Below the pieces are notes generated by a model. That model made no database searches and was not told the DNA's origin. It saw nothing but the letters and a program-made list of their open reading frames with translations. A stretch of 64,000 nt of DNA from an uncultured virus (IMG/VR IMGVR_UViG_3300027769_000001). Lineage: Duplodnaviria; Heunggongvirae; Uroviricota; Caudoviricetes. The translations under genes and the position numbers were made by a program. Below, piece after piece: positions 1,764 through 41,297 of the stretch (position 1 is the stretch's first letter; every line of letters starts with the position of its first letter). The stretch lies in the IMG/VR virus record IMGVR_UViG_3300027769_000001. The stretch is one strand, 5' to 3'.

Positions 1764-1960
1764 ACTCCATCGTCGTTTCCACGTCCGACCTCGGTCAAGG
1801 CATCACCATAAACCAACTGGTCTCCGAGGACGGATCCATCTATTACAGGACCTGTAGGGGTGGTGTTTGCCGGTACTGCGAGGACGAATACGTCAGCCGC
1901 ATGTACGCCGTGCACATGGGCTACGACCCCCTCAATACAGCCACTGAGCGTACGGCGTAG
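1760..1960 (+). CDS. Hypothetical protein
   Basis: ATGA overlap with upstream gene; contains CRGGVCRYC. Confidence 0.5.
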   Translation: MNSIVVSTSDLGQGITINQLVSEDGSIYYRTCRGGVCRYCEDEYVSRMYAVHMGYDPLNTATERTA

Positions 1961-8614: not shown

Positions 8615-8642
8615 TACTATTTGGGGCAACTGAAGACCACAT

Positions 8643-26010: not shown

Positions 26011-26340
26011 TCAGGCTGCTGCCCAGCCCTGAGTCGCTTCTTCCACCCAGAGCTGAATTGCCGTCTCCCTGTGCGGAGACCACCAGCTCTGCTGCCTAAA
26101 CCACTCCTGCCAGTCCAGCGTGCTGCCCTTTGCTCGGTTGCACGCCGCACAGCAGCACACCAGATTGGCCCGCTCACTCCCACCGCCTCGACACCGAGGA
26201 CGGATGTGATCCAACGTGTCCCCCGGCTCCCCGCAGTACGCACAAAGGGATCCCCAGCTACTGAGAATCCCCTCTCGAAATTGTTGCTTGGCCTGACGCT
26301 TGGTGAGGAGACGGGACCCATCAATCTGATGGTCGACCAT
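26011..26340 (-). CDS. HNH endonuclease
   Basis: CAYCG...TLDHIRP..GG...NLV.CC..CNRAKG. Confidence 0.9.
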   Translation of the reverse strand: MVDHQIDGSRLLTKRQAKQQFREGILSSWGSLCAYCGEPGDTLDHIRPRCRGGGSERANLVCCCAACNRAKGSTLDWQEWFRQQSWWSPHRETAIQLWVEEATQGWAAA

Positions 26341-26517: not shown

Positions 26518-28335
26518 ATGGCTGCTCCTACTTCAGACAACTTCCGGAACGATGGTGCGTTAGTTAACGTTCTAACGGGCTTAGGTGTAGGAACCAAGGA
26601 CAAAACAATCGCCACATCCGTAGGCTTCCAGGCCTTACTTTCGGAAGCTGAACTCGAAGCTCTTTACATCAACGGCATCCCCCGCCGTTATGTCGACGCC
26701 ATCAGCGACGAGATCCTCCGCCACCAGACAACCCTGAAAATCGGTGGCGATGCCCAAGAGGACAGCGCCGATCTCCTCAGCCAATTCGAGCGCTTCCTCC
26801 AGGCCACGCAGTTTCACTTCGCGCTTTCCGAAGTCATCAAGCTGCAGCGTCTCTATGGCGGCGCCGGCCTCGTACTGCTCCTCGACGATGGCCTCCAACC
26901 TGAAGAGCCAGTCGATCCCGCTCGTCTCCGCGCTGTCAACGGTTACGTCCCCCTAAGTAGGCACGAGCTGATCCCCGAGGACGTTTCAATCACCGACTAC
27001 TCCCGTCCTTCGCACTACCGCATCACCACCAGCCAGCGACTCACTCCGGACCAAAACAGCAACTACGTCAACATCCGCATCCACCACACCCGGGTCGCTC
27101 GCTTCGACGGCTTGTTCCTTCCGTGGAACCTACGGTCCCGCAACACAGGCTGGGGCCAATCGGTCCTGCAGCTCATGTGGAACGCCTTCAAGCGCTACGA
27201 GACCGCCATGTCCGGCCTCGAGTCGATGACGTCTGACGCCGACATCTTCGTCCACAAGATCCCCGGCCTCTTCAACCGTGTCGCCGCTGGCAACGAAAGC
27301 GACATCCGCAAGCGCCTGGAGGCCAACAACCTCAGCCGCTCCGTCTACGGCGGCATGGTCGTGGACACCGAGGAGGACATCAACTTCCTCAACCGCGCCC
27401 TCAGCAACATCGCCACCGCCACCGACCCCTTCATCAAGGATCTTCAGGCTTCTACCGGTTGGCCCGCCTCAATCCTCATGGGGGACTCCCCCGGCGGCCT
27501 AGGCAAGGAAGGTCGCTTCGAAGAGCGTGTCTGGTCCTCCCTTGTCGAGCAGTGGCAGGAGGTCTACTGCCGCACCCCGATCACCGAGATCTTTAGCTAC
27601 ATCCTGGCGAGCAAGGAAGGCCCCACCCGAGGCCGTGTCCCTGAGTCCTGGTCCGTCCACTTCCCCAGTGTCTTTACAACGACTGACAAGGAGGCGGCCG
27701 AGCTCCACCAGATCATGGCCGCTTCCGACGCCCAGTACATCCAGCTGGGTGTGCTCAACGCTCTCGAGGTACGCGAATCCCGCTTCGCCGGCACCGAGTA
27801 CTCCATCGAGACGAACCTCAACGAGGCCATCACTGAGCAGCTCGTCGCCTCCACCGACGCCCAATTCCAATCCCAAATGGCGGGCTATGAAGCGCAGCTT
27901 CAGGCCACCCAAGAACCACTCGCTCCCCCCGAGGGCGAAACAGGCGGAATCCTTCCTGCCGAAGGCGAAGAAGCCCCACCCCGTGGTGATGCGCTTTACG
28001 CAGACGCCAGTGGCCTACGCATCCGCATCACCGCCCATAACGGCGACACGGTAGCCGGCCCGCTTGTCGGCCCCGATGGCCAACGCATCGACACCAGCGC
28101 CTCCGCCCCACTGCTACTGATCGGGCCACACCGCACCCGAGCCCGAAAGCTATACCGCGCACGCTTCACACTCGACGGCGCGCTTCACGACGGTCCCTAC
28201 ACCACCGGCTTCAACTCATTGCGCGCCGCCAAAGCTGCCGTTCAGCGCTTCTTCCCTGGTCAGAATGTGGCAGGGCTATCCGCCGTGCCCGAAACCGAGG
28301 CCGACACGTTCCGCGCCTACAACGAGGGCTACTGA
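26518..28335 (+). CDS. Portal protein (DUF1073-type) with C-terminal extension
   Basis: RLYGG, IHHTR..RFDG, GWGQSVLQ, P.SILMG.SPGGL, F.S.FTTTDKE.AE; follows TerL. Confidence 0.88.
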   Translation: MAAPTSDNFRNDGALVNVLTGLGVGTKDKTIATSVGFQALLSEAELEALYINGIPRRYVDAISDEILRHQTTLKIGGDAQEDSADLLSQFERFLQATQFHFALSEVIKLQRLYGGAGLVLLLDDGLQPEEPVDPARLRAVNGYVPLSRHELIPEDVSITDYSRPSHYRITTSQRLTPDQNSNYVNIRIHHTRVARFDGLFLPWNLRSRNTGWGQSVLQLMWNAFKRYETAMSGLESMTSDADIFVHKIPGLFNRVAAGNESDIRKRLEANNLSRSVYGGMVVDTEEDINFLNRALSNIATATDPFIKDLQASTGWPASILMGDSPGGLGKEGRFEERVWSSLVEQWQEVYCRTPITEIFSYILASKEGPTRGRVPESWSVHFPSVFTTTDKEAAELHQIMAASDAQYIQLGVLNALEVRESRFAGTEYSIETNLNEAITEQLVASTDAQFQSQMAGYEAQLQATQEPLAPPEGETGGILPAEGEEAPPRGDALYADASGLRIRITAHNGDTVAGPLVGPDGQRIDTSASAPLLLIGPHRTRARKLYRARFTLDGALHDGPYTTGFNSLRAAKAAVQRFFPGQNVAGLSAVPETEADTFRAYNEGY

Positions 28336-28336
28336 G

Positions 28337-31300
28337 ATGACCGCATCCAACACCACACCAGAAGGCTTCCGGACTGCGGCCTATCTCGCCACCCGCGCTC
28401 GCTTGGACGCCGCACGCAGCCGCAGCGGCAAAACCAACCGCAGCGTTGACTGCAAACCCCCCAACACCCAGTGCGGCGGCCGTTGCATCCCCCCTTCCTG
28501 GGACTGCCGCATCAAAGGCGAAGGCCCCGACCCTCACCTCCGCGCAGTCCGCACTGATCCAGTCAGCGGCCTAGCCAACATCGAGCGCGGCATCAAACGC
28601 ATCGGCAAAGGCCTCCGCAAAGGCAGCTTCTCCGAGATTGAAGGTGGCAAACGCGCCATCGTCCGCGGTGTCGTCAAGGCCACTCCAGGTGACATCCAAC
28701 GCAAAAAAGCCCTCCAAGCGCAGCTCGAGCGCCGCGCCGCAGGCATCGCACTCGGCCTGAGCATCGTCGGCTTCGGCTTGTTCAGCCACAACCAACTCAA
28801 GCGCGCACCGTTCTACCGCGACGGCGTAGGTCGCCGCATTGACGACGCCGTCTCCGCCGGCATCAACCGCGTACTGGACGCCACTCCTGGCATCGGAGCC
28901 CGCCGCGCTGAACGCCGCGCCGCTGCTGGTGCAGCAGGGATGGCAGCCACTGCCCGCGCCGCCACCACCGCCGCCAGCGGTCCCGAGACCCTTCGCAGCG
29001 GCCTACTCCGCACACCTACCGACCTAGAGCGCCGCTCCACCGAGTACGGCAACTCTCGCGTCCTGTTCAACCGCATCAGCAGTGTCGACATCGACGCCGC
29101 CAACCGCGGAACCAACCTCGAGACATGGCGCCAGACCAGCCTCGAGTCTTTCTGGGGCACCAAGCGCACCAACGCCGCCGGTCCCGGAGACGGCAGCACC
29201 TTCTCCGAGCCCGCCACCCACGAGTTCCTCTCCCGCCAGTTCGGCTTCCGCCTAGACCGTTACACGAATGACACACAAGTTCGCCGTGCCGTATCGACTG
29301 CGCTGACCCGCGAAGCCGTAAACCTCCAAGGTCTCGCACGGCAGCAGGGCGTCAACCTCAAAGACGCTGATGCGCGTAACGCGTTCTTGAATCGCATCGT
29401 GGGCCCCTCCACTGCGAACTTCCCCGCAGACGTGCGTGACCGCGCTGTCAAAAACCTCGATGACGTCCTAGGCAACCCCGTCAGCAAAGGACGCGAAGCC
29501 ACCATCAGCCGCAAAGAGCTGGCTGACCGTTACTACCGCGAAACGCGAGACGGCTTCGACCAGTACTTCGCCCGCATTGCTGATGAAGTCCGGCAAACGC
29601 CCGGCGTAGCCATGCCGAAGGAGCAACGCAAAGGCGGCTACGACAGTTTGATGATCAGCGCCAGGATCGGCCACTCCCGCTACCTCGCAGGTCGCCTCAA
29701 CAAAACCATCCCGAGCATGGGCCCCGGCGTCTCCGACGTGGTCGCCAAGGAGTACTTCGCCACCCAGGTGCAGAAGTCCAGCACGTTTTCGCTGTCTGAC
29801 CGCGAAGTTCGTGTCGCCGCTTCTGAGCTGGCTGGCCGCAACATCACCAGCATCGGCGAGGCCACCCAGTACCTCCAGTCCAACGGGTTCCCCCGCCTCG
29901 TCGCAGTGCAGCGTGCACCTTCCGCCGCCTCCGCTGGACTACGCAGCGCAGCATCTCTCACCAGCCGAGCACGCAGCATCATGGCTCGCGCCGGCAACGA
30001 GAACATGAGCCTCGAAGCCGCGTATCGTCAAGCCCGCGCCGAAATGCGCGGCGACGCCGCTGACCTACCTCCACGGGTCGCCGCTTACTTGCAGACCCGC
30101 AACGACTTCGTCGCAGGGAAGAAAGGTCAGGGAAAGCCCTGTGGGGAGAGCCACATCCCCAAAGCGCATGAGTGCAACATTGGCAAAGGCAAAACGGCAC
30201 CCCCCGAGGGCGGTAATCGATCAAACACCGGTGCAAAGGTGGCCGTGGCGGCTGCCCTTGTGGGTGCTGCTGCCCTAGGTGGGCGTGCAGCCTTCAAGAA
30301 CAGGCAGAATATACCTATGTATAAAAACGCTGCTAAATATGTAGACACGGGCATTAAGACAATGTCTTCGACTAAAGTGCGTAATGCTATTAGTAAACTA
30401 CCTACAAAATTCCAAGAACCTGCCAACAAGCTAGTCGGTAAGGCTAAAGTGGGGTTAGCTTTTGTTGCAGCTGACGCGCAGGGCATGAAGCTGACCAAAG
30501 TTGACCCTATCAACAACTTCAGCACGTTCAAAAACCCCACAACGGGTCACGTTATGAGCGTAGGAGCGGTAGACGATACACTTGTGACCTTTGTGTCTAC
30601 TCCGAGCGGCAAAGCAGGCGCCTTTGACAAGTTTGGTATTGCGTTTCAGACAGACCTTAGCTTCGATCAAAAAGAAGGACTCAGCAAAGCACAGGGCTTA
30701 GCCGTCTCTAAACAAGTTAAGTCTATGTTTAGTGCACAACTAGACGAAATGCCTGAGAATGCTGTGCTTTTCAACAACCCCTATAAAGATGATGGATTAG
30801 GTGACAAGCGTAGTGCTATTTACAAGCGCTTCAAGTTCACAGAACTCCCAGGCGTGCGGGGCGGCAACATGTGGGCGCTCAAAAACCAAGGCAAACTGAC
30901 CAAAATCCCACCTGAGCAAGCTGACTACGTGGCAAAGCTCATCCGTGGCGATGCCGAAGACACCCGGATTGACCTCAAATGTGGTAAAGGTTCCATCTCC
31001 GAGGGCGAAAAATGTACAAAAGGTGCCGCCACTAAGGTAAATCCTAATGCGGCAGCTTCCAATCGCAAACTTGCCGTAACCGCAGCGGCAGCCGGAGCAG
31101 TAGCTTTAACTGCTGCTCTAACTGCTAAGAGCTGGACACCAGCAGTTCAACGTATATGGGATAATGCCCGCGTTGTAACCCCTAAAGACGCTACTTATTT
31201 AACTGAGGGCCGTAGTGGTAAAGTCTGGCTGTCTAACGATAACAAGTTTGTAATAAAAACCAGTAAAGGAAAAGTGAACATGAAAAAGTTCACTAACGAA

Positions 31301-31777
31301 ATGAATACGCAAAATGCGCTCCACAGCGCTGGCGTTAGCGTTCCTAAGATTCACAACGTAGACGCTAAACGCGGCGTAGTAATGATGGAGTACTTGAACG
31401 GCTATGCCGATTCAAGCAAGATACCCGCAGCTAGTCGTGTGCCTGTGCTGCGAAAAACAGTGTCAGAGTTGCAAAAAATGAGCGCACTTAATGTGTCACA
31501 CGGCGACCTACACCCAGGTAACATCATGGCCAAAGGCACCGATGTAAAAATAATCGACTTCGGCAATGCAGGCCCCGTTACTAAAAACGGCTTATCAGAC
31601 ATAAGCAACATACAACTACAAGCTAAAACAGAAGATCCGAAACTCTTTGCTGCTATAGTTGCCAACAGGAAGCCCCTTGAAGCTAAAATCAGCAGCGGTA
31701 AAGCGCTAACACAAGACGACTTCAACTCTTTCTACACACGCTTGCAACGCGACCTTAAACAAACCTCAGCCGCCTAA
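28337..31777 (+). CDS. Three-module Cys-tagged polyprotein with C-terminal protein-kinase-like domain
   Basis: Three CGxxxI[P/S]xxxxC tags each followed by a hydrophobic helix; EGRSGKV, VIK, HGDLHPGN, IIDFG. Confidence 0.8.
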   Translation: MTASNTTPEGFRTAAYLATRARLDAARSRSGKTNRSVDCKPPNTQCGGRCIPPSWDCRIKGEGPDPHLRAVRTDPVSGLANIERGIKRIGKGLRKGSFSEIEGGKRAIVRGVVKATPGDIQRKKALQAQLERRAAGIALGLSIVGFGLFSHNQLKRAPFYRDGVGRRIDDAVSAGINRVLDATPGIGARRAERRAAAGAAGMAATARAATTAASGPETLRSGLLRTPTDLERRSTEYGNSRVLFNRISSVDIDAANRGTNLETWRQTSLESFWGTKRTNAAGPGDGSTFSEPATHEFLSRQFGFRLDRYTNDTQVRRAVSTALTREAVNLQGLARQQGVNLKDADARNAFLNRIVGPSTANFPADVRDRAVKNLDDVLGNPVSKGREATISRKELADRYYRETRDGFDQYFARIADEVRQTPGVAMPKEQRKGGYDSLMISARIGHSRYLAGRLNKTIPSMGPGVSDVVAKEYFATQVQKSSTFSLSDREVRVAASELAGRNITSIGEATQYLQSNGFPRLVAVQRAPSAASAGLRSAASLTSRARSIMARAGNENMSLEAAYRQARAEMRGDAADLPPRVAAYLQTRNDFVAGKKGQGKPCGESHIPKAHECNIGKGKTAPPEGGNRSNTGAKVAVAAALVGAAALGGRAAFKNRQNIPMYKNAAKYVDTGIKTMSSTKVRNAISKLPTKFQEPANKLVGKAKVGLAFVAADAQGMKLTKVDPINNFSTFKNPTTGHVMSVGAVDDTLVTFVSTPSGKAGAFDKFGIAFQTDLSFDQKEGLSKAQGLAVSKQVKSMFSAQLDEMPENAVLFNNPYKDDGLGDKRSAIYKRFKFTELPGVRGGNMWALKNQGKLTKIPPEQADYVAKLIRGDAEDTRIDLKCGKGSISEGEKCTKGAATKVNPNAAASNRKLAVTAAAAGAVALTAALTAKSWTPAVQRIWDNARVVTPKDATYLTEGRSGKVWLSNDNKFVIKTSKGKVNMKKFTNEMNTQNALHSAGVSVPKIHNVDAKRGVVMMEYLNGYADSSKIPAASRVPVLRKTVSELQKMSALNVSHGDLHPGNIMAKGTDVKIIDFGNAGPVTKNGLSDISNIQLQAKTEDPKLFAAIVANRKPLEAKISSGKALTQDDFNSFYTRLQRDLKQTSAA

Positions 31778-32640
31778 TGCGCATCCTCGAGCAGTACAAC
31801 GATGCCCTCCGCCGCACCGAGGACGTCTCCATCACCCAACTCAACCGCATCCTCGATGCCGCCTTCAACCGGCTTATTCGCCGCACCCGCACCCAGATCC
31901 GCAATCCTCGCCCCGCTGTCGACCGCAACCTCTCTCTCCTCCAGGAATTCCGCGAGCTCGTCCCCACCTTCCGCCCTGACCGCGTCGACGCCTACGACCG
32001 TGTTTTACGCAGCTTGCTCCGCAGCGCCCAGGGCAACGGAATCGCTGTAGCCCGCGACCTCACCGAGATCGTCCGTCCCTTCGGCCCCCGCATCGACGTA
32101 TCCATCCCGTTTGACGCAACTGTGGCCGCCGCAGCCCAGGCCAAGGGCTACCTCCGCCGCCACGGCGAAAACTTTGCCACCGATGCCACCGAGCTCGTAG
32201 CTCAGGGCATTGCCACAGGTCGTCCCACCGATGCCATCACCAACGACCTGCGCCTCCGCCTTGGTGTGGTCAAGTCCCGCGCCGACGTGATCGCCCGCAC
32301 CGAATCCCTCCGCGCCTACAACACTGCCAGCAACCAGTACTACGCCTCAAACGGCATCGACCTGGTTATGTGGTACGCCACCAGTGACGACCGCACCTGT
32401 CCGATCTGTAACGCTCGTGCGGGCCGCATCTACAAACGCGCCAGTACGAATGCACCGGCACACCCGCGCTGTCGCTGCATGCTCTCCCCTTGGGACCCCG
32501 AGATCGCCGCAGCTGACCCCGAGTACGCCTCTCTACCCCAGCGCCACCGGGAAGAAGTGTCCAAAGTGGCGACAGTCGGCCCTGCTGATCTAAACAAGGC
32601 CGCGGTTTTCGAACAGTTTGCTCCTCAACCTTTCGAATGA
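31777..32640 (+). CDS. Minor head protein, MuF / SPP1 gp7 family
   Basis: RADVIARTES, W.ATSDDRTCPIC, PAHPRCRC. Confidence 0.92.
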   Translation: MRILEQYNDALRRTEDVSITQLNRILDAAFNRLIRRTRTQIRNPRPAVDRNLSLLQEFRELVPTFRPDRVDAYDRVLRSLLRSAQGNGIAVARDLTEIVRPFGPRIDVSIPFDATVAAAAQAKGYLRRHGENFATDATELVAQGIATGRPTDAITNDLRLRLGVVKSRADVIARTESLRAYNTASNQYYASNGIDLVMWYATSDDRTCPICNARAGRIYKRASTNAPAHPRCRCMLSPWDPEIAAADPEYASLPQRHREEVSKVATVGPADLNKAAVFEQFAPQPFE

Positions 32641-32735
32641 GTAAGCAGCAATTAAACGAATGGTAGCAGCAGTTAAGCTAGCAACTACCACATCACATAT
32701 GATACGCACATCGTCAATAGACCAAGTAGGTAGTT

Positions 32736-32966
32736 TCACTTCTCATCCGAAATGTAACGACCATGAGAATCACGCAGTTTACGTGGCCTATTAGCCCGCG
32801 TAGCAGGACTCTTGCGTTGCAGCTCGTACGGAAACAGCTCACTACCCATATGTAGTACAAGCTGTAGAATCGAATTATCTTTCAGTTTGCTCAGAGCAAT
32901 AAGCTCACTTAGGAAAAACAAACCAAAACCAATAAGAGCTTCCGTGTTAGCATCAGGCGCGGTCAT
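32736..32966 (-). CDS. Small membrane protein
   Basis: GFGLFFLSELIALSKLKDNSILQLVL. Confidence 0.6.
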   Translation of the reverse strand: MTAPDANTEALIGFGLFFLSELIALSKLKDNSILQLVLHMGSELFPYELQRKSPATRANRPRKLRDSHGRYISDEK

Positions 32967-33108
32967 GATTGTGCGGATATACCTGCACTCCAGTTTAGCC
33001 AGCCTGTATTTACCCGCTCCGGCTTCTTTAGCGGCGTTCTTGGAGCGTTTTACGGCCCACTAGAACAGAGCAGCTACGCTATATGCAACACCACCCTGGG
33101 CCGCCGCC

Positions 33109-34020
33109 ATGCCCGCCACCGCTACCCGCACCAAGAAGTCAGCCGCTTACGAGGCTGGGATGCGCGAGGGCCGCGCTGATAAGAGTAAAAAGCCCAAGAT
33201 CGAGATCGAAATCTCCCCCGAGGGCGAGGAAGAGGAAGGTCCTGAAGACGAAAAAGAGATGGATGGCGGTATGAAGCCTCCTAGCCGCAAGCGCAGCGCC
33301 AAGGGTGCCAAGAACACCAAGGCACCGATGGATGCCGAGTGCGGCTGCAAGGGCAAAAAGGGCGGAAAGTGCGACGGCAACTGTGGCGGCTCGATGAGCA
33401 AGCGTGGGGACTCCGCTCTCACCCCCCACGAGTACCTAAGCGCCTGCGACCTGGGCATCCAAGACCGCAGCCGCTCCTACATCCGAGCCCGGCTGGACGC
33501 CGCGCAGCGCCTCGACCTCAAGTGCGGTAAAGGCTCCATCTCCAAAGGCGAGAAGTGCACCAAGGGCAGCGCGACCGCTGCTGAAAGCGCCCCTATATCT
33601 ATTAGGAAAGGGATGAAACTAGGTGCTAAAATTGGTGGAGGTTTAGGTGTCGCGCAAGGTGCACTTGGAGGCGCTGTGCTTGGAGGTCCCGCGGGAGCAT
33701 TGGCCGGTGCCGCTGTTGGTGCATTAGGTGGTGCTCTAGAAGGCGCGGTCATTGGAGGTGGCGTTCAGGTAGCGCGTAAAGCAGGAGCTGCTTACGGAAG
33801 AAGCCGCGAACGCAATCGTAAAGTTCAAGCCGGCATTGCAAAGTTAAACCCTAAGTTCAAAAAGCAATATGAAACAGCTAAAGCTAGGGGGGCTTCAAGG
33901 CAGGAGTTGACCCAGCTCTCGATTAAGCAAGCAGGCGAGATCGACAAGCTCATGAACAAGCGTCGCGACTCCGTCTACGCCGCTGGCTTCACCCCCGACA
34001 CCGCCGCCCTGGCAATCTGA
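33109..34020 (+). CDS. Cys-tagged protein with glycine-zipper cargo
   Basis: RLDLKCGKGSISKGEKC followed by a long GxxxG-rich hydrophobic stretch. Confidence 0.75.
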   Translation: MPATATRTKKSAAYEAGMREGRADKSKKPKIEIEISPEGEEEEGPEDEKEMDGGMKPPSRKRSAKGAKNTKAPMDAECGCKGKKGGKCDGNCGGSMSKRGDSALTPHEYLSACDLGIQDRSRSYIRARLDAAQRLDLKCGKGSISKGEKCTKGSATAAESAPISIRKGMKLGAKIGGGLGVAQGALGGAVLGGPAGALAGAAVGALGGALEGAVIGGGVQVARKAGAAYGRSRERNRKVQAGIAKLNPKFKKQYETAKARGASRQELTQLSIKQAGEIDKLMNKRRDSVYAAGFTPDTAALAI

Positions 34021-34023
34021 GCC

Positions 34024-34935
34024 ATGGCCCTCACCCCCGCCTCTCTGCGCCTGGACCTCAAATGCGGCAAAGGCTCCATCTCCGAGGGCGAGAAGTGCAC
34101 CAAGGGCACCGCCACCAAAGCTGAACAGTCAAACTCCGCCCGCAAAGCGCTTGCTGTTGGCCTGGCGGCTACAGCTGTAGGAGTCGGGGCCTACGCCCTT
34201 TCACGGCGTGGCGCACGTCCGATACGATCCGCCTCCCCGACCGCGAGTGCGCCCACAGCCACACCGCCACCATCTGGCCCTCCACGTCTACCTGGCATCA
34301 CCCCAAAAGGACTGCTCAAGGCCGCACCACCGCGCCAGTCCAAAACGCAACGCATGCGTGAGAACACTGCCGCAGCGATTCGCAATGCCGAAGCCCGCGT
34401 TGCACAAACTGCGCGTGAAGAAACCCGCCGCCTTGCACAGATCGGAAACACCATGGCCTCTGCCGGTGAAGCCGCAGGCATGGCCACGAAACTCACAGCG
34501 CGCAATGTCAGGCTGCGCGTCGAAGCAGCTCGCCGCAGGTACGAACCCGGCTATCGCGCCGGTCGCACCGACAACTTCATCCAGCACTACGCCCCGGTCC
34601 AACTGCAACCACCTACGCGGCGTGATGCCTCCTCCGGGCTCAGCAAGCCCCGCGCTCAGAAGGACACCGAGGACGGCAAGAAGTACACCAAAGTCGTAAC
34701 CAACCCCGAAACAGGCCGCAAAAACCGCATTCGCTACGGCGCAAAAGGGTACAAGATCGCCCCTGGCACCGACAAAGGCGACCGCTACTGCGCCCGCAGC
34801 TTCGGCGACATGAAGTCCGAGGGCTTCAACTGCGCCGGCGCCGAACGCAACACCCCGCTCTGTCTATCCCGTGCCAAGTGGCGCTGCAGCGGTAAAGCCA
34901 GCCGCCGTGACGGAGCTCTGACGCCGGGAAAGTAG
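34024..34935 (+). CDS. Cys-tagged protein with hydrophobic helix and C-terminal basic Cys domain
   Basis: RLDLKCGKGSISEGEKC; ALAVGLAATAVGVGAYAL; PGTDKGDRYCARS...SRAKWRC. Confidence 0.75.
   Translation: MALTPASLRLDLKCGKGSISEGEKCTKGTATKAEQSNSARKALAVGLAATAVGVGAYALSRRGARPIRSASPTASAPTATPPPSGPPRLPGITPKGLLKAAPPRQSKTQRMRENTAAAIRNAEARVAQTAREETRRLAQIGNTMASAGEAAGMATKLTARNVRLRVEAARRRYEPGYRAGRTDNFIQHYAPVQLQPPTRRDASSGLSKPRAQKDTEDGKKYTKVVTNPETGRKNRIRYGAKGYKIAPGTDKGDRYCARSFGDMKSEGFNCAGAERNTPLCLSRAKWRCSGKASRRDGALTPGK
34926..34932 (+). other. Predicted -1 ribosomal frameshift site GGGAAAG
   Basis: G GGA AAG immediately before TAG; -1 frame is open 34911-36566 and encodes a tag with no start codon of its own. 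Confidence 0.8.
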
Positions 34936-36566
34936 CCGGCCTACCGCGAACCGACGCCCCCAAGGGCGGCCAGGGCAAGCCCTGCGGAGAGTCGCACATC
35001 CCGCGCACGCATAAGTGCAGCAAAAACGCAGGCCCTTTAACCGCAGGAAACCTCAAAACTGCTGCTAAAGTCGCTCTTGCCGTTGGTGCCCTAGCAGGAG
35101 GTGCTTACTTGACAAAACGCGGAATGATGAGCATGGAGGAGTGGCGTAAATCCCCCCAGAGTGCCCGTAACAACCCCAAGCTGAGCCCCGAAGAAGCCCA
35201 GCGCATCGCCGACGAAGCCATTGCCGGCGGCCAGAAGTGGGACGTCCAGGAAAAGATCAACGCCCACCGCCAAGCGGAACTCAACACCGAGTGCGGACTA
35301 GGCCTGGGAAAGGTCTTGGCCCCGGCGAAGTTTGACGCGCTTATCCCCAAGCCGCGTTGCCAAGCCGGGGCAGGTGCATTCGGCACCTACTTCGTTCACC
35401 CCTCCGAGAAGTACGGCGTCAAGCTCTTCCGCAATGGCGACGAAGACGACGTCGGCTTCGAATTCGACATGCTCGACCGAGCACGGACGGCCGGCGTAAA
35501 CGCCCCCGATCCGCTGTCCATGAATGCTGTTCGCGACATGGATGGCGAAATACGCGCTCAGACCCTGGTGCTGAGCCACATGAAGGGGTACAAACAGCTC
35601 TACGAAGCCCACCACAGTTCCTATGGGCGAGCCAATAACGCGCCCCTTATCACTCAAGTCAAGATCGCCCGTGAGTTTAGGAAGCTCCACATCGAAGGCT
35701 TAGCTCACGGGGACATTCATTCAGGCAACATAATGGTGAATCCTGTTAGCAAGAAAGCCGCTATAGTCGATTTCGGGTATGCCACTAACTTGGATTCTTA
35801 TCATCCTGGCCACGGACGCAGCGGCATTCAAAACCTGATGCAAGATCTGGATCGACTGCCAGAGTTTTTCGGTCTCCCTCAGAATGGTGACGAGTTTCGC
35901 GCGCGCTACAAAGGGGTTATCGACAACATCGAAGTTCAGGCCACCAACTGGGATAAAGGCATCGAGCGCAGCAACTCATGGGATCGTTTCGAGCTCGGTG
36001 TCAAGCGGTATCACGACGCCCTCGAGGCTGAGCTCCTCTGGGAAGACCGCAAACCTCGTTCCCGCTTCATCAGTGGCGCCGACCAACCCCGCATTCCCGG
36101 CCTGACCAGGCGCATCCTCACAGCGAACGCCAACACCTTCCAGCGTGAGGTACTGGAGCAGGTCGCTGCCCAAGGAGATCCCGATCTCTTCAAAAAAGGC
36201 GCGCAGAACCTCGGGCTCAAACCCGCGCGCCTAGTCGCAGCCTTGAAGCCCGAGCGCGATGCCCGCCTAGCGCGCCAACGCCAAAAGCCCTTCGGCACTC
36301 CGCTCCCGCCGGTTACGCGCCCTTTCCGCACTGGTAAAGCTACGCGAAGGCAGCGGCTCCCTGACATCACACAGAAATTCAACTCGGCCGGTGTCTTGCG
36401 TTGGGTAACCAAAGCTCCTAAAGCTCCTGCAACCCCCGCCCCTCGGAGCCTCGGCCGACTCGCGCGCAGCATCATGGAACGCTCCGGCAACGAAAGCATG
36501 AGCCTCGAGGCCGCCTTACGTCAAGCTCGCAACGAGCAACGCGGCTATAGCTCCTGGAGAGACTGA
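34932..36566 (+). CDS. Cys-tagged protein-kinase-like module, probably a frameshift extension of 34024 (ORF track start 35109)
   Basis: GKPCGESHIPRTHKC tag; GAGAFG, GVK, HGDIHSGN, IVDFG. Confidence 0.8.
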   Translation, partial: VAGLPRTDAPKGGQGKPCGESHIPRTHKCSKNAGPLTAGNLKTAAKVALAVGALAGGAYLTKRGMMSMEEWRKSPQSARNNPKLSPEEAQRIADEAIAGGQKWDVQEKINAHRQAELNTECGLGLGKVLAPAKFDALIPKPRCQAGAGAFGTYFVHPSEKYGVKLFRNGDEDDVGFEFDMLDRARTAGVNAPDPLSMNAVRDMDGEIRAQTLVLSHMKGYKQLYEAHHSSYGRANNAPLITQVKIAREFRKLHIEGLAHGDIHSGNIMVNPVSKKAAIVDFGYATNLDSYHPGHGRSGIQNLMQDLDRLPEFFGLPQNGDEFRARYKGVIDNIEVQATNWDKGIERSNSWDRFELGVKRYHDALEAELLWEDRKPRSRFISGADQPRIPGLTRRILTANANTFQREVLEQVAAQGDPDLFKKGAQNLGLKPARLVAALKPERDARLARQRQKPFGTPLPPVTRPFRTGKATRRQRLPDITQKFNSAGVLRWVTKAPKAPATPAPRSLGRLARSIMERSGNESMSLEAALRQARNEQRGYSSWRD

Positions 36567-36785: not shown

Positions 36786-38051
36786 ATGAACCAGCGAATA
36801 GTTGACAACGACCGTTTTGAGGTCTTTTACGTCCGTGGAGATAGCGACTATCCCACTCCAGTCCTAGCCAACGCAGGCACCAGTGGAGACGCTTTCGGTC
36901 GCTTGCGTACTAGCGACCCCTTCACCCTGTTCGACAGCCAGCACAGGTACCAAGAAAACGACAAATGGGATACTGCACTAAACGGCGGGGGTACTAAAAC
37001 TTACCGTATAAACGAAAGCGCAGTAGATCTCACAGTGCCTGTAACGTCAGGCGCTTACGTCTACAGGGAAACTAAAAAAGTATTCACGTATCAGCCAGGC
37101 AAGTCCCTCCTGGTGCTTAGCTCCTTCGTGTTTGCTGCAGCTAAGGCAAACCTAAGACAGCGTGTGGGCTATTTCGGCACACAAAATGGTGTGTATCTTG
37201 AGCAAGATGGCACCACAAAATACTTTGTGATGCGCAGCTACACCACAGGAGGTGTCGTAAATACCCGTATTGCGCAAGCTGACTGGAACGGTGACAAGCT
37301 CGACGGTACCGGCATTTCTGGACACACCGTAGATTTGGCCAAAACACAGATCTTGTGGTTTGACATTGAATGGCTTGGTGTGGGTGACGTGCGCTGTGGT
37401 GTTGTAGTCGACGGCCGCATGGTAGTTGCTCACACATTCCATGGTGACAATGTCAACCCAACCACCTACATGACAACAGCGGTGCTACCGCTGCGTCAGG
37501 AGATTGAAAACACAGCCGCAACCGCGTCAAGCTCCACCGCCAAGCAGATCTGCAACTCCGTTGTATCCGAGGGCGGCTACTCCGGCTTTAGCAGGCGCTA
37601 CAACCTGGCTACAGGGTCGACGGCTCGCACGCTTGCCACAGCAGGCACCATGTACCCGATCATGGCAATTAAGCTAAACAGTTTAAGACTTGATAGCGTT
37701 GTTATTCCCGCTAACATTAGCGCGGCAGTTGAACAAACGACTAACAACAAGTTAGACATCGTTCAGTATCATGTACTAATCAACCCGACGCTAACCGGTG
37801 GTACATGGAACACACACTTTAACGGTAACGTCGACTACAACACATCAATAACAAGTCACAGTGCAGGTACAGAGATTGCAGGAGGCTACTTAACTAGCTC
37901 ATCTTCGCTTACCCTAAACAACATTAACGACTTTAACTTCCAATTAGGCCGCAGCATAGCTGGTGTTTCCGACACTATTTTAATTGCTGTTACTCCGACC
38001 AACGACGGTGCTAAGCTCTTTCTAGACCTAGCTTGGTTTGAACTCGTGTAA
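36786..38051 (+). CDS. Putative virion structural protein
   Basis: DAFGRLRTS.PFTLFDS, YQPGKS, EWLGVG.VRCG motifs of an aquatic-phage beta-rich protein. Confidence 0.65.
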   Translation: MNQRIVDNDRFEVFYVRGDSDYPTPVLANAGTSGDAFGRLRTSDPFTLFDSQHRYQENDKWDTALNGGGTKTYRINESAVDLTVPVTSGAYVYRETKKVFTYQPGKSLLVLSSFVFAAAKANLRQRVGYFGTQNGVYLEQDGTTKYFVMRSYTTGGVVNTRIAQADWNGDKLDGTGISGHTVDLAKTQILWFDIEWLGVGDVRCGVVVDGRMVVAHTFHGDNVNPTTYMTTAVLPLRQEIENTAATASSSTAKQICNSVVSEGGYSGFSRRYNLATGSTARTLATAGTMYPIMAIKLNSLRLDSVVIPANISAAVEQTTNNKLDIVQYHVLINPTLTGGTWNTHFNGNVDYNTSITSHSAGTEIAGGYLTSSSSLTLNNINDFNFQLGRSIAGVSDTILIAVTPTNDGAKLFLDLAWFELV

Positions 38052-38116
38052 TGCCGGGCCCTGTCCGGCAGCGCCGGGTCAGCCTTAAGCTGTAGTCATT
38101 GGCTGGCCTTGGTAGC

Positions 38117-38464
38117 GTGTCACTTCAGCCCGGGTACTACGACATCACCCTGCAGCGCAGGGCTGACTATGTCGTACAGCTCCAGTTTCGCGATAGCGAC
38201 GATGTCCCTATCAACCTGACTGGCTGGGTTGCCTACGCCCAGGTCTGGAGCTGTGATCGCACCACCAAATACGCAAATTTTGCAGTCACATACACCAATC
38301 GTACTACTGGTACTATCACGCTTGCACTTACTAACGCACAAACCTCTGACTTTCCAACCCAACTTTGCTATGACGTAATGCTTCAAGATAATGCCGGAAT
38401 CCGCGAGTATTATCTTGAAGGTGGTATTAAAGTATCTGAGGGTTACACCATTCCAGGAACATGA
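38117..38464 (+). CDS. Fibre adaptor protein (BppU-N-like)
   Basis: PINLTGW...AQ, GTITLALT..QT, YDV, YYLEG. Confidence 0.6.
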   Translation: MSLQPGYYDITLQRRADYVVQLQFRDSDDVPINLTGWVAYAQVWSCDRTTKYANFAVTYTNRTTGTITLALTNAQTSDFPTQLCYDVMLQDNAGIREYYLEGGIKVSEGYTIPGT

Positions 38465-38880
38465 ATACCGTCAGCGTTAATCGCGTTCGTCAAACTGTCG
38501 TCGTCACCGAGAACGGCAACCAAACGGTCGTTGTAGCCGAAGGTGGTCGCGTCAACGTTGTTCTAAATACCCCTGGTCCCCAAGGAGCTCCAGGTCCACA
38601 AGGCAGCGCAGGCCCTCAAGGCGCTACAGGCCCACAAGGAGCTACCGGTCCAGCCGGTATAGGCATTCCAGCGGGTGGTACGACAGACCAGCTCCTTGCA
38701 AAAAAATCCAATACAAATTACGACACACAGTGGCTAACCCCATCATTAAACACGCTATCAGATGTAAATACGACCGCGGCAGTAGATAACAGCGTTTTGT
38801 ACTACGATAGTGCTGCGGCGCTATGGAAAGGTAATGACATAAATACTGTAATTAGTATAACCGATGGTGGTAACTTTTAA
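38461..38880 (+). CDS. Collagen-like fibre protein
   Basis: About ten G-x-y repeats (GPQGAP); GGTTDQLLAKKSNTNYDTQW; ends DGGNF. Confidence 0.8.
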   Translation: MNTVSVNRVRQTVVVTENGNQTVVVAEGGRVNVVLNTPGPQGAPGPQGSAGPQGATGPQGATGPAGIGIPAGGTTDQLLAKKSNTNYDTQWLTPSLNTLSDVNTTAAVDNSVLYYDSAAALWKGNDINTVISITDGGNF

Positions 38881-38924
38881 CCCCCATACCTTTGCCGCTA
38901 CTCTGAACTACATCCCGCGTAGCC

Positions 38925-41297
38925 ATGGCTAACACACTCCGGATCAAGCGCCGCGCCAGTGGAGACGCCGGTGCTCCCACCACCCTCGCTAATGCAGAGC
39001 TTGCCTTTAACGAGGTCGATAATGTCCTTTACTACGGTAAAGGAACTGGCGGTGCCGGAGGAAGTGCCACCAGTGTCGAGGCTATTGCCGGCCCTGGTGC
39101 TTTCGTAAACCTGAGTGGCGCCCAGACAATCTCAGGCAACAAGACATTCAGCGGAACTGTTGCACTTGGCAGTAGCGCCTCGGCCTCCACGCCGGCAACC
39201 TCGGACAACACCACGACGGTTGCCACGACCGCCTATGTGAAAGCACAGGGTTATGGCCCCGGGAGCGTCACCAGTGTCGGCCTCAGCCTGCCGAGCTTCA
39301 TTACTGTCTCGAACTCGCCTGTCACAGGCAGCGGCACCCTGACTGGTGCGCTGGCTAACCAAACAGCAAACACTGTTTTCATCGCACCAAATGGCAGCGC
39401 CGGAACTCCGACGTTCCGCCTGCTGGTAGCCGCAGACATCCCGACACTGACCGCTGCCAAGATCAGTGACTTCGACACCCAGGTCCGCACCAGCCGCCTG
39501 GATCAAATGGCGGCGCCTACGGCTGCTGTCAGTTTCAACAGCCAACGGATTCTGGATATTGCAGCACCGCAACTCCCAGGCGACGCCGTCAACAAGCAGT
39601 ATGCCGACTCAATCGCGCAGAGCCTGAACGTCCACGGTGCTGCGGACTTTGCAACTACTGCTGCTGTTTCATACGCATACGCCTCCGGTGGTACTGCTCT
39701 AACTATCACCACGATTACCGGCACCGACACCATCACGTTCAGTGCCAACCATGGACTGAACATTAACTCCCAAGTTCGTACAGGTGACACGGTAACTGGC
39801 ACAGGCCTGACCGCTAATACCACCTACTATGTAACTGCAGAGCCGGCGCTTAACCAAATTAAGCTGTCAGCTACATATGGTGGTCCCAACGCCACGCTGA
39901 CAAACGGTACTGGGCTCAGCATTGGTGTTACTGGTGATCCTGGTATCGGCGCAACCCTTAGCGGCACTCCGAATAGCCTTGACTCCGGCGCCACGCTAAC
40001 TCTTGACAAGCGAATTCTTGTCAAGGATCACACAACGGCTGCCTACAACGGTGTCTACACCGTAACGACCGTTGGCACAGGCGCAAACGGCGTCTGGACC
40101 AGAGCAACCGACTTCGATAACGGCCCAACAGGCGAAATCACCGCTGGTGACTACGTTTTCGTCGCCGGCGGCAACATAAACGGCAACAACGGCTTCATCC
40201 AGACCGCCTCCCCTCCGCTTCGGATGGGCAAGTCAGGTGCTGGCTACACCGCATTTACTGGAGACGCGCTTTCCTTCACCCAGTTCTCAGGTGCGGGCCA
40301 GATCACCGCTGGCGCCGGCCTTACCAAATCAGGCAACACCCTCGACGTTGCTTCTACCGGAGGCGGTGCGCTGACCATCAGCGCCGACTCGATCAACCTG
40401 ACCAGCGGCATTGCCACCGCTGGCACCTATCGCTCGGTCACGGTTGACACCTATGGCCGAGTTACTGCTGGTACGACTCCGACAACATTTGCGGGCTACG
40501 GCATCAGTGACAGCAGCGCAAACCTGGCCAACGCCATTTCCGACGAGACCGGCAGCGGCTCTCTGGTTTTCGGCACCAGCCCCGCGCTGACGACTCCATC
40601 ACTGTCTGGCGAGACATTCAGCACGGCTGCAACCGTCACCGCCGGTACCAACGCTCAGGGCCAAAGCGCCCTGACCAATGACCACAACATTGTTACGACT
40701 GCCGCCGCCAACCCCAGTGGCGTCACTCTTCCGACTGCCACCGTTGGCCGACGGATTCTGGTCGTCAACCGGGGCGCCAACCCAGTCAACGTTTTTCCGG
40801 CAACCAATGCCGCAATCGACGCCCTGGGCCTGAACGTTGCGATCAGCCTCCCGGTGAACGCGATGCTGCTGTTCTTCGCCTCCTCGGCGACACAGTGGTA
40901 CGCCACCAACCCGCTGTCCGGCACCCTCGGTCTGGCGTACGGCGGCACAGGCGCAACTGACGCACCAGGCGCCCGCACGAGCCTGGGCCTGGTGATCGGC
41001 ACCAACGTGCAGGCTTACGACGCCGAGCTCGCCACGCTCGCAGGAATGGCGTCAGGAACCGCTACTGCGCTGGCGGGAATGACGGCAACAACCGCTACTG
41101 CGCTGGCGGCCCTGACTGCAACCGAAGCCGCAATCATCGACGGCAGCACCGCCGCAACCGCAACCACGCTGGCACAGGCTGACCGCATGGTCATCAACGA
41201 CGCCGGCACGATGGTTCAGGTTGCCCTCAGCGACCTCGTTACCTTCCTCGAGGATGGAGCTACCTCCGGCTTCGACATCGACGGCGGCACGTTCTAA
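38925..41297 (+). CDS. Fibre protein (head or tail)
   Basis: T/G/A-rich; ELAFN, ATTAYVK, DAVNKQYAD, NGVY..WTRATD, VTVDTYGRVT; ends DGGTF. Confidence 0.8.
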   Translation: MANTLRIKRRASGDAGAPTTLANAELAFNEVDNVLYYGKGTGGAGGSATSVEAIAGPGAFVNLSGAQTISGNKTFSGTVALGSSASASTPATSDNTTTVATTAYVKAQGYGPGSVTSVGLSLPSFITVSNSPVTGSGTLTGALANQTANTVFIAPNGSAGTPTFRLLVAADIPTLTAAKISDFDTQVRTSRLDQMAAPTAAVSFNSQRILDIAAPQLPGDAVNKQYADSIAQSLNVHGAADFATTAAVSYAYASGGTALTITTITGTDTITFSANHGLNINSQVRTGDTVTGTGLTANTTYYVTAEPALNQIKLSATYGGPNATLTNGTGLSIGVTGDPGIGATLSGTPNSLDSGATLTLDKRILVKDHTTAAYNGVYTVTTVGTGANGVWTRATDFDNGPTGEITAGDYVFVAGGNINGNNGFIQTASPPLRMGKSGAGYTAFTGDALSFTQFSGAGQITAGAGLTKSGNTLDVASTGGGALTISADSINLTSGIATAGTYRSVTVDTYGRVTAGTTPTTFAGYGISDSSANLANAISDETGSGSLVFGTSPALTTPSLSGETFSTAATVTAGTNAQGQSALTNDHNIVTTAAANPSGVTLPTATVGRRILVVNRGANPVNVFPATNAAIDALGLNVAISLPVNAMLLFFASSATQWYATNPLSGTLGLAYGGTGATDAPGARTSLGLVIGTNVQAYDAELATLAGMASGTATALAGMTATTATALAALTATEAAIIDGSTAATATTLAQADRMVINDAGTMVQVALSDLVTFLEDGATSGFDIDGGTF

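Follow-up and report, generated by a model that had tools for sequence, protein, structure and literature searches.

A recurrent Cys-loop leader among the head genes of an uncultured tailed virus marks candidate capsid-loaded effector proteins

General features of the tagged block

Positions 28337-36566 of the 64,000-nt stretch of DNA analysed here (the window; uncultured virus record IMG/VR IMGVR_UViG_3300027769_000001) hold six modules that each carry a short tag bounded by two cysteines, the Cys loop, together with unlike cargos. The block lies between the portal and the head maturation protease genes, and its major features are summarized in Table 1. A six-frame search of the window with the pattern CG...I[PS]....C gives exactly six tags, all on the + strand, and 200 shuffled sequences gave 0.06 matches on average and never more than one. 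All six tags of the original prediction, a model's reading of the letters of this window, are therefore present, and there are none elsewhere in the 64 kb. The leader to which the tag belongs is real, widespread and apparently undescribed, and appears to mark exchangeable effector cargo in phage head modules.

Five of the tags stand 2-10 residues after an R-x-D tripeptide (RND 30098, RID 30965, RLD 33508, RLD 34048 and RTD 34947); for tag 1 the nearest one is about 21 residues upstream (RLD 28400). A hydrophobic helix, taken as a 17-mer with a Kyte-Doolittle value of at least 1.4, is Ala/Gly-rich, starts 14-17 residues downstream of tags 2, 3, 5 and 6 and is followed by basic residues. After tag 4 such a 17-mer starts at 38 residues, within the Gly zipper, and after tag 1 only at 75 residues. 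The DNA of the tags had been described as near-identical between copies; this is a fair description of tags 4 and 5, with 85% identity over 88 nt (33498-33585 versus 34038-34125), but not of the comparison with 30955-31042, where identity is 64%. Likewise, the modules occupy three genes only if the open reading frames (ORFs) 34024-34935 and 34932-36566 are joined by a -1 frameshift, as standard ORF calling gives four. Several cargos are AT-rich, as had been noticed: the GC content is 0.49 at 30200-30940, 0.47 at 31050-31777 and 0.53 at 35460-35870, against 0.62-0.65 in the portal, module 1, MuF, orfB, protease and major capsid protein (MCP) genes.

Two other likenesses of the tags were considered and dropped. 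The residues before the Cys of L-K-C-G are unlike the lipobox consensus. The R-C-I-P-P of tag 1, which resembles the loops of Bowman-Birk/SFTI inhibitors, has a would-be P1 residue that is not conserved across the tags.

Table 1. Features of the head region and of the tagged block (positions in the window)
Feature	Position	Strand	Description
HTH small-terminase-like gene			
TerL	24543-25949
HNH endonuclease gene	26011-26340	-	Pfam HNH_5 4.5e-9; between TerL and portal, opposite strand
Portal, 605 aa	26518-28335	+	Pfam Phage_portal_3 (PF06381) E 4e-54; phrog_146
Polyprotein, 1146 aa, three tagged modules	28337-31777	+	ORF; module 1 all-alpha, module 2 probable GNAT-like, module 3 RIO/Bud32-like kinase
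Tag 1, CGGRCIPPSWDC	28472-28507	+	four-Cys variant, further Cys 7 residues upstream
C-terminal helix ARSIM.R.GNE.MSLEAA.RQAR.E.RG, 28 residues	29969-30052	+	end of module 1
Module 1/2 boundary, probable protease cut sites	30047-30106	+	RGD 30047-30055, RND 30098-30106
Tag 2, CGESHIPKAHEC	30140-30175	+	hydrophobic helix 30227-30277
Module 2 cargo	30296-30919	+	probable GNAT-like acetyltransferase fold; AF2 pLDDT 84.1; GC 0.49
Module 2/3 boundary	30944-31015	+	RGD 30944, RID 30965, then tag 3
Tag 3, CGKGSISEGEKC	30980-31015	+	helix 31067-31117
MuF / SPP1 gp7-type minor head protein, 287 aa	31777-32640	+	Pfam Phage_Mu_F 1.5e-15; TIGR01641 1.3e-20
orfA, 303 aa	33109-34020	+	RGD-SALTP 33403, RLD 33508, tag 4, Gly-zipper-like region
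Tag 4, CGKGSISKGEKC	33523-33558	+	in orfA
orfB, 303 aa	34024-34935	+	leader M-A-L-T-P-A-S-L-R-L-D-L-K, tag 5, helix, helical middle, Cys-rich C-terminal domain; ends ...SRRDGALTPGK*
Tag 5	34063-34098	+	in orfB; helix 34144-34194
Slippery heptamer G_GGA_AAG	34926-34932	+	0-frame stop TAG 34933-34935 directly after; predicted programmed -1 site
-1-frame extension, 545 codons including stop	34932-36566	+	VAGLP-RTD (34947)-APKGGQGKP, tag 6, helix, Kdo/RIO/APH-like kinase, C-terminal helix
Tag 6, CGESHIPRTHKC	34983-35018	+	in -1-frame extension; helix 35061-35111
Second copy of the ARSIM helix	36462-36545	+	end of kinase extension; direct repeat, 80% DNA identity over 84 nt
Head maturation protease with acidic scaffold-like C-terminal part	41863-43146	+	DUF2213 (residues 18-172) Pfam 4.7e-42; phrog_530 8.8e-83
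Cement protein			between protease and capsid gene
Major capsid protein	43800-44717	+	Pfam Major_capside (PF09950) 2.4e-54

The first three modules are strung in one protein, whose gene begins one base past the portal stop. Placed between portal and MuF, it has the make-up of a polyvalent protein (2 to 15 domains in one polypeptide among virion genes), and it found no match by tblastn in 50,697 phage records. The AlphaFold2 (AF2) model of module 1 is all-alpha (pLDDT 73.6), with the tag 1 loop as a small beta-hairpin; its best rows in fold searches, with E 0.17 in PDB and 0.056 in BFVD, do not reach E<=0.001. Thirteen positions around tag 1 (C19, P21, P22, N23, C26, G27, R29, C30, I31, P32, P33, W35 and C37) are invariant in 38 homologues, and the boundary to module 2 reads ...RGD[SA]... 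in homologues too. In 16 related loci a hidden Markov model of the ARSIM helix places it at the end of module 1, directly ahead of the R-G-D boundary; the helix might act as another docking element or be a joint for recombination.

For the module 2 cargo a GNAT-like fold is probable, not certain, given that the best E value is 3.5e-3 and Z does not exceed 7.7: the top Foldseek rows of its model are mostly GNATs, and the VIA-align rows are nearly all GNATs but stay below the tool's caution line of 8. Protein Atlas look-ups of the module 1 and module 2 cargo gave no usable match. The cargos had also been said to include two kinases and a glycine zipper, and searches agree, with RIO/Bud32/Kdo-like domains in Pfam and NCBIfam and a Gly-rich zipper in orfA, a protein without a Pfam family. 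Module 3 matches RIO1 (Pfam 1.3e-8, residues 973-1078) and Bud32 (NCBIfam 2.8e-12), while module 6 (about 35460-35870) matches APH (3e-8) and Kdo (1.1e-7). Between them the two modules exceed the Pfam cut-offs, in bits, of RIO1 (35.1, cut-off 22), ABC1 (32.2, 22.9), APH (29.6-34.2, 23.2) and Kdo (31.9, 21.3) and fall below those of Pkinase and of all NCBIfam equivalogs; a kinase-like fold is likely for both on these profile scores. At E<=0.01, Pfam finds no LPD1-39, ART-PolyVal, InPase, MPTase or similar domain in the window proteins.

In the same tblastn search only the small C-terminal domain of orfB was matched (S-TIM5-type cyanophages, roseophages CRP-212 and CRP-7, and Vibrio phages). Some orfB homologues bear DUF5872. 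MuF carries no toxin, as the original prediction held: Phage_Mu_F (residues 139-236) is its sole domain, and the fused C-terminal toxin of the MuF polymorphic toxins is absent.

Conservation of the leader and of the block in related loci

Scoring of 8000 candidates gave 368 orfB homologues at E<=1e-3, and 80 IMG/VR loci, many of them on truncated contigs, were collected by this homology. They contain 347 tags, 345 of them on the gene strand. A locus has 0-9 tags and mostly 4-5: none in five loci, one in four, two in four, three in eight, four in 23, five in 19, six in six, seven in four, eight in three and nine in four.

The leader has a recognizable grammar. It often opens with a stretch x-L-T-P-x2-7 and ends in R-x-D, which is followed 2-10 residues on by C-G-x-[GS]-x-I-[PS]-x-G-x-K-C and x-K-G. 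Among 268 unique tags, compared as 34-mers, R is found at -5 in 56%, D at -3 in 50% and K or P at -1, before C-G-x-[GS]-x-I-[PS]-x-G-x-K-C-[TRH]-K-G. In 20 aligned orfB homologues T4, P5, R9, D11, C14, G15, I19 and C25 are invariant, and the N-terminus M-x-L-T-P-x2-[LIV]-R-x-D-x-K-C-G-x3-I-x5-C is the most conserved part of these proteins besides the C-terminal domain. Three forms of the leader occur. The first opens a gene of its own, with a stop codon followed by M-x-L-T-P...R-x-D-[LK]-K-C-G; the second is an in-frame fusion, R-R-x-D-S-A-L-T-P...R-x-D-L-K-C-G; the third is reached by frameshifting. A stop lies within 25 residues upstream in 67 of 351 modules, and as stand-alone genes keep the leader whole, it is not merely a domain separator. 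R-x-D occurs at most 14 residues upstream of 278 of the 351 tags, against a background in these ORFs of about one per 100 residues. A hydrophobic helix (19-mer) follows 233 of them, at a median distance of 17 residues, and so is a non-obligatory part of the unit.

The gene order TerL-portal-module 1-MuF-...-orfB-protease-cement-MCP is constant in the 80 loci. The tags are confined to the interval from portal to head protease, most of them close to MuF, and the expected link of the tag to head modules elsewhere is thereby seen. Because the loci were selected by orfB, it amounts to conservation within a family, not to an independent test. By tblastn the protease is present in 66 loci, MuF in 62 (inside the tagged block), module 1 in 50, MCP in 50 and the portal in 47. 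Protease and MCP are 85-93% conserved among the loci, while the cargo block varies. As had been anticipated, one short tag is reused before unrelated, exchangeable cargos: 344 cargo stretches fall into at least 32 clusters (single linkage, which lumps some), and most modules differ from locus to locus. Unrelated cargos with a common short N-terminal leader are also a feature of T4-type capsid targeting. Pfam gave no family for 21 of 30 cargo representatives scanned; the others match RIO/Kdo/APH kinases, LRAT/NlpC-P60, DnaJ, lipase/alpha-beta hydrolase, ADP-ribosyltransferase, M3/ATLF-like zincin and Gly zipper. By its enzyme domains, the cargo looks like injected effectors.

R-x-D motifs and the head maturation protease

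The protease-scaffold protein of the window contains nine R-x-D against 2.8 expected. An excess, about 3-fold in the protease-scaffold, is found throughout the family, with 536 observed and 181 expected in 66 protease-scaffold ORFs and 605 and 235 in 176 orfB-class ORFs; TerL (14 and 49) and the cement protein (3 and 15) have fewer than expected. In 85% of cases R-x-D is followed by A, S, G or T. All nine positions of the window protein are kept in 34-44 of 44 distinct homologues, and several also in Synechococcus phage S-CBS4.

The protease is of the DUF2213/T1-like kind, and its head module includes a portal of family PF06381 and a capsid protein of family PF09950. It is related to the capsid maturation protease (gp33) of the T1-like coliphage TLS (31% identity over 280 aa, E 2e-24), the scaffold part of which holds 14 [RK]-x-D. 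According to the accessible text of the TLS paper (PMC11447400), the mature capsid protein has the Edman sequence ASDMGIW, and its authors deduce a loss of 45 residues. ASDMGIW begins at residue 28 of the deposited TLS gp36, directly after K-N-D, from which it follows that 27 residues are removed. The window capsid protein matches TLS gp36 in BLASTP (E 5e-32), with R6-N-D8 (43815-43823) opposite K25-N-D27. Since it is enriched and conserved in the scaffold and aligned with the sequenced TLS capsid cut, [R/K]-x-D with a small residue after it is very probably the cut site of this protease family. The R-x-D beside each tag would then most likely be a cut site of the DUF2213 head protease, and its presence near 278 of 351 tags is the main argument for regarding the tagged proteins as putative prohead-internal substrates. 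When the protease domain (residues 1-190) was folded together with the orfB leader (residues 1-40), the score was 0.00, which is no evidence either way.

In the portal an R-G-D-A site (27982-27990) precedes a C-terminal extension of about 115 residues (window 27982-28335), a tail that the protein would lose if the protease cuts there.

A predicted -1 frameshift into module 6

The frame that encodes module 6 is open from 34911, and its first ATG/GTG/TTG is a TTG at 35109, downstream of tag 6 and its helix. It overlaps the end of orfB, where an in-frame heptamer of the type X_XXY_YYZ precedes the stop. A slip to -1 would yield ...L-T-P-G-K-V-A-G-L-P-R-T-D-A-P-K-G-G-Q-G-K-P-C-G-E-S-H-I-P..., in which the leader grammar (A-L-T-P-G-K | V-A-G-L-P-R-T-D) spans the slip site. 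On this sequence pattern, which is conserved among relatives, the GGGAAAG site is predicted to join the startless module 6 to orfB, a frameshift that the original prediction does not mention.

In a census of 81 sources (the 80 loci and the window), 18 (17 loci and the window) combine an in-frame heptamer with a 0-frame stop no more than 15 codons away and a -1 frame that is open and tagged. The heptamer and stop lead to a different, untagged extension in three and to a closed -1 frame in five. In 42 sources orfB ends ...S-R-R-(S)-stop with neither heptamer nor downstream unit; three have in-frame fusions (L001, L060, L080) and ten are not evaluable. Folded singly, the RNA after the heptamer has a z of -1.94. 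RNAalifold on 16 junctions found no conserved structure (-3.3 kcal/mol, six pairs, no compensatory change).

In L019 (2056), L041 (10981) and L063 the untagged -1 frame after the heptamer holds a different basic domain (YYRTHP...RRKVRHQAAINR...), which another orfB homologue, P0114, carries in frame.

The tag beyond the family

A tag profile of 32 positions, built from 148 aligned tags, was searched against 1.84 billion representatives and found 644 clusters at E<=1e-3, 159 at <=1e-10 and 2 at <=1e-30. A strict tag is present in all of the best 150 of the 644 matches; 148 of these carry at least two and as many as six, and in 122 the first one falls in residues 1-50. Of 41 tag-bearing proteins scanned, 22 have no Pfam family at E<=1e-4. 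Others are polyvalent, with ART-PolyVal, InPase, NUDIX, LPD1, PolyA polymerase, HD, GNAT and PI3/PI4-kinase-like domains, and hallmark domains of the polyvalent class are present in P0177, P0195 and P0226.

The claim that the tag had no known description stands within the sources covered. No Pfam family covers it at E<=5 (two tag peptides and five tag-bearing proteins), NCBIfam has no family for it, PHROGs names do not mention it, and a PDB profile search with the tag alignment gave only a chance row (E 3). Literature on DUF2213, MuF and polyvalent proteins, prohead proteases, capsid targeting, and S-CBS and T1/TLS phages yielded nothing on it. The words cysteine, transmembrane, linker and zinc ribbon are absent from the main text of the polyvalent-protein paper (PMC5512222), so a junction tag is not described there, though its supplements might show the motif.

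The tag marks particular lineages and not the polyvalent class, since of 68 loci collected with a polyvalent query 67 lack a credible tag; the 14 matches in their roughly 1.16 Mb are chance ones, being out of context or in frames broken by stops. A scan with the polyvalent protein P0177 gave nothing. The remaining locus, L088, represents a second lineage. It has 13 real tags within 14 kb; two of them start stand-alone genes, and another is in an ORF fused to a Mu-like head protease. MuF was not detected in the 13 ORFs scanned; the tag is thus not tied to MuF. In L088 the loop is preceded by [LIVMF]-x-N-[SG]-x-P, and the 194-aa ORF that follows the protease contains 10 [LIVMF]-x-N where 3.2 are expected. 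As a hint from a single locus, the pre-loop motif may follow the protease while the loop stays constant. A DUF932 gene is found in both tag-bearing lineages (window 17776-18849, L088 763-1737; E 3.4e-30 and 9e-47), and in L088 it sits just upstream of the head/cargo block.

The constancy of the loop invites the reading that the loop itself is the capsid address, recognized by the scaffold part of the protease, the capsid interior, the portal or MuF, with LTP...RxD as a spacer that holds the cut site. The loop is indeed the most conserved element, its C, G, I and C being invariant in the 148 aligned tags and in the 268 unique 34-mers; it is kept in the second lineage despite the other flank and a Mu-like protease, and stand-alone cargo genes keep it with no neighbour to be separated from. 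We nevertheless consider such an address unlikely. A cut after R-x-D would leave the loop on the mature protein, unlike the T4 targeting sequence, no partner has been identified, and the charge of the loop is basic in the cyanophage family and acidic in L088. As charge is not conserved, a simple electrostatic dock is disfavoured.

No hydrophobic helices follow the L088 tags, nor those of the five inspected among seven tag-bearing polyvalent-type proteins. This bears on another explanation, in which the tagged proteins are not virion cargo but are made late for the membrane of the infected cell (to serve host takeover, superinfection exclusion, envelope remodelling or lysis control), share no more than the late operon with the head genes, and the Cys loop is a periplasmic, disulfide-closed N-terminal stub before a signal-anchor helix. 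The 19-mers that follow two thirds of the tags in the family would suit such a stub, the basic residues after the helices in the window fit an N-out/C-in topology, and two Cys 10 residues apart could form a periplasmic disulfide. The explanation is an improbable one, however: the portal-to-protease position is conserved in all 80 loci, the R-x-D code is common to scaffold and capsid protein, one tagged ORF is fused to a head protease, and tags occur in helix-free polyvalent proteins (ART-PolyVal, InPase, NUDIX, LPD1), a class that the accessible text of PMC5512222 treats as packaged and injected.

Genome context

The overall gene layout of the window resembles a siphovirus genome, and the tail genes are of siphovirus type, with a 1754-aa gene in the usual tape-measure place and a J-like fibre. 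The closest isolate by capsid protein is S-CBS4 (54% identity). A scan of genome contigs with orfB gave seven weak loci (Vulcanococcus, Prochlorococcus single-cell assemblies and a Rubrivivax metagenome-assembled genome), none of which has the tag. These weak matches, S-CBS4 and a cyanomyovirus-like 421-aa protein point to picocyanobacteria as hosts.

S-CBS4 and TLS have the same portal, protease and MCP types and do without the tagged block, which is thus an accessory insert. Together with the tail, this weighs on a structural explanation of the block, in which it encodes mainly ejection or scaffold proteins, with zipper helices that form a trans-envelope conduit as in P22/T7, Cys loops that link subunits by metal sites or disulfides, and enzymes as secondary passengers. 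GxxxG/AxxxA-type helices are typical oligomerisation motifs. Core members are conserved (module 1 in 50 of 80 loci; orfB in 80 of 80, by locus selection), module 1 and orfB are largely helical, the former without an enzyme fold match, and two-Cys half-sites could pair. But a siphovirus-type tail usually provides the conduit itself, S-CBS4 and TLS lack such a block, and most modules vary by locus, unlike a fixed structure; we give this explanation little credence.

Several other genes surround the block. The gap between MuF and orfA (32641-33108) is AT-rich (GC 0.48) and contains a minus-strand ORF of 76 aa (32736-32966) that has a hydrophobic stretch, matches phrog_22542 (5.3e-8) and phrog_15106, neither with an assigned function, and looks like an inserted moron. 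From the cargo block to the protease extends an inserted gene set (36786-41297) for proteins of 421 aa, 121 aa, 139 aa (collagen-like) and 790 aa (fibre-like). The 421-aa protein (phrog_1645) is 42-50% identical to 'virion structural proteins' of T4-like cyanomyoviruses such as S-RIM8 and S-RIM50 and is also matched in SAR116 phage HMO-2011; its gene is at the same place in only 17 of the 80 related loci. Elsewhere the window encodes a sigma-70-type factor, an endolysin (glucosaminidase and M15 peptidase), a family A DNA polymerase and a primase-polymerase/helicase (11731-12621, 1932-3116, 3745-5691 and 5906-8629, respectively).

Proposed role of the leader

With moderate confidence we favour the explanation that the block encodes effector proteins that are loaded into the capsid and separated by the head protease, comparable to the internal proteins of T4. 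How the tagged proteins would be cut at the cargo sites, packaged, ejected and placed in a membrane, and what the Cys loop may do, we infer as follows. The products of 28337-36566 would be internal head proteins with effector cargo, each unit opening with the common leader. The units would reach the assembling prohead as polyproteins, as products of separate genes that open with the leader, or, at low frequency, as the -1 extension of orfB made at GGGAAAG (34926). There the DUF2213 protease-scaffold would cut after [R/K]-x-D, which would separate the units and trim their leaders, so that the mature cargo would start about two residues before its Cys loop and keep the loop as an N-terminal cap. 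The cargo would leave the capsid together with the DNA, and helix-bearing units may insert into the host inner membrane with the enzyme domain in the cytoplasm. Docking in assembly, a metal or disulfide staple, and a function after ejection are all possible roles of the loop; our guess is that it acts as a docking knob or as an N-terminal cap, stabilised by metal or disulfide, that every unit requires for itself.

Several observations weigh against this explanation. Tag 1 and the other four-Cys tags have no R-x-D within 14 residues. R-x-D is weakly enriched in module 1 (293 observed, 253 expected) and MuF (152 and 124), and all the counts come from related sequences and so are non-independent events, just as the 80 loci, chosen through orfB, are a non-independent sample of head-gene linkage. 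The proposed cuts in the cargo proteins extrapolate from a single sequenced site, which lies in the capsid protein of a distant relative. A loop that is retained on the mature protein, if so retained, need not be an address. Hydrophobic helices are unusual in a capsid for soluble cargo and could mean a membrane role in the infected cell. At the frameshift site, no conserved RNA structure was found downstream of the heptamer in the 16 junctions, and the -1 frame is closed in five of the 26 loci with heptamer and 0-frame stop. The view of the second lineage comes from one locus, L088.

A broader possibility, which we put forward only tentatively, is that the cut site and the Cys loop form a general, portable cargo-loading code of tailed phages, in which the loop is the constant docking or capping element and the residues before it co-vary with the protease family (R/K-x-D with DUF2213, hydrophobic-x-N with a Mu-like protease). 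Whatever protein bears this code would enter the prohead, be freed by the head protease and travel with the DNA. If true, such a code would explain how freely these phages swap effectors, and it would be a second capsid-targeting system, independent of that of T4, that could be used to load foreign proteins into heads.

To our knowledge, how proteins are chosen for the capsid is known in detail in very few systems, namely the T4 capsid-targeting sequence, the P1 Dar proteins and MuF fusions. The leader marks 644 clusters (E<=1e-3) and stands before a broad set of anti-host enzymes in uncultured cyanophages that are abundant, which makes it a sequence handle by which injected effectors may be traced in metagenomes. 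Two further uses suggest themselves, as a cleavage code that can be tested in the large DUF2213/T1-like protease family and as a candidate tag for loading proteins into capsids. The predicted, conserved -1 frameshift would be a newly found instance of recoding that controls how much of a packaged enzyme is made.

Comparison with known systems

The T1-like phage TLS shares the head module but not its cargo. Its portal (gp31, E 3.6e-14), protease (gp33) and capsid protein (gp36) are homologous to those of the window, and gp32 is a morphogenesis/MuF-like protein. In TLS and S-CBS4 the scaffold part is rich in [K/R]-x-D, and the TLS capsid protein is cut after K-N-D, as described above. Both phages have the series portal-MuF-like-protease-MCP with no tagged block between portal and protease.

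The lambda tail chaperone G/GT and the T7 capsid protein 10A/10B resemble the orfB junction in that an X_XXY_YYZ heptamer just before the 0-frame stop leads to a minor, C-terminally extended product, and GGGAAAG is the very heptamer of lambda G/GT. They differ in that the predicted site described here lies in a head-cargo gene, would append a whole tagged effector unit and has no stimulatory RNA structure that we could find.

The polyvalent proteins of phages and conjugative elements (Iyer, Burroughs, Anand, de Souza, Aravind 2017; PMC5512222) also combine several effector domains per polypeptide among virion genes, including kinases, ADP-ribosyltransferases, GNATs, zincins and peptidoglycan or lipid hydrolases. 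The accessible text of that paper proposes processing and reports assemblin-like peptidases at C-termini. The window's own proteins, in contrast, have no LPD or ART-PolyVal domain. The MuF-fused polymorphic toxins of temperate phages occupy the same place in the head module, involve the same MuF/SPP1 gp7 protein and exchange variable effector domains, as far as the accessible text shows (Jamet et al. 2017; PMC5576092). Here, MuF is unfused, the cargos carry a leader of their own, and the tag also occurs in L088, where no MuF was detected.

The giant phages phiKZ and SPN3US have many internal head proteins that are cut by the prohead protease and enter the host (PMC7411985, PMC10052503). Their protease family and motif are different, and a shared Cys loop is not reported in the accessible parts of these papers.

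The T4 internal proteins with their capsid targeting sequence appear to be the closest functional analogue. IPI-III and Alt, processed by gp21, are unrelated cargos with a short common N-terminal leader that ends in a P3-x-P1 cut motif, and according to T4 reviews their functions are diverse and include anti-host and anti-defence roles, as the cargo is diverse here. A sequence relation is not expected. The cut motif here is [R/K]-x-D instead of the L/I-x-E of T4. The units described here would moreover differ in three respects. A conserved Cys loop follows the leader and would remain on the mature protein, whereas the T4 targeting sequence is removed; units are also strung as polyproteins or added by frameshifting; and many carry a hydrophobic helix. 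With packaging a prediction here, the tagged block is best compared to T4 as a candidate counterpart, in which a common leader would bring diverse effectors into the head.

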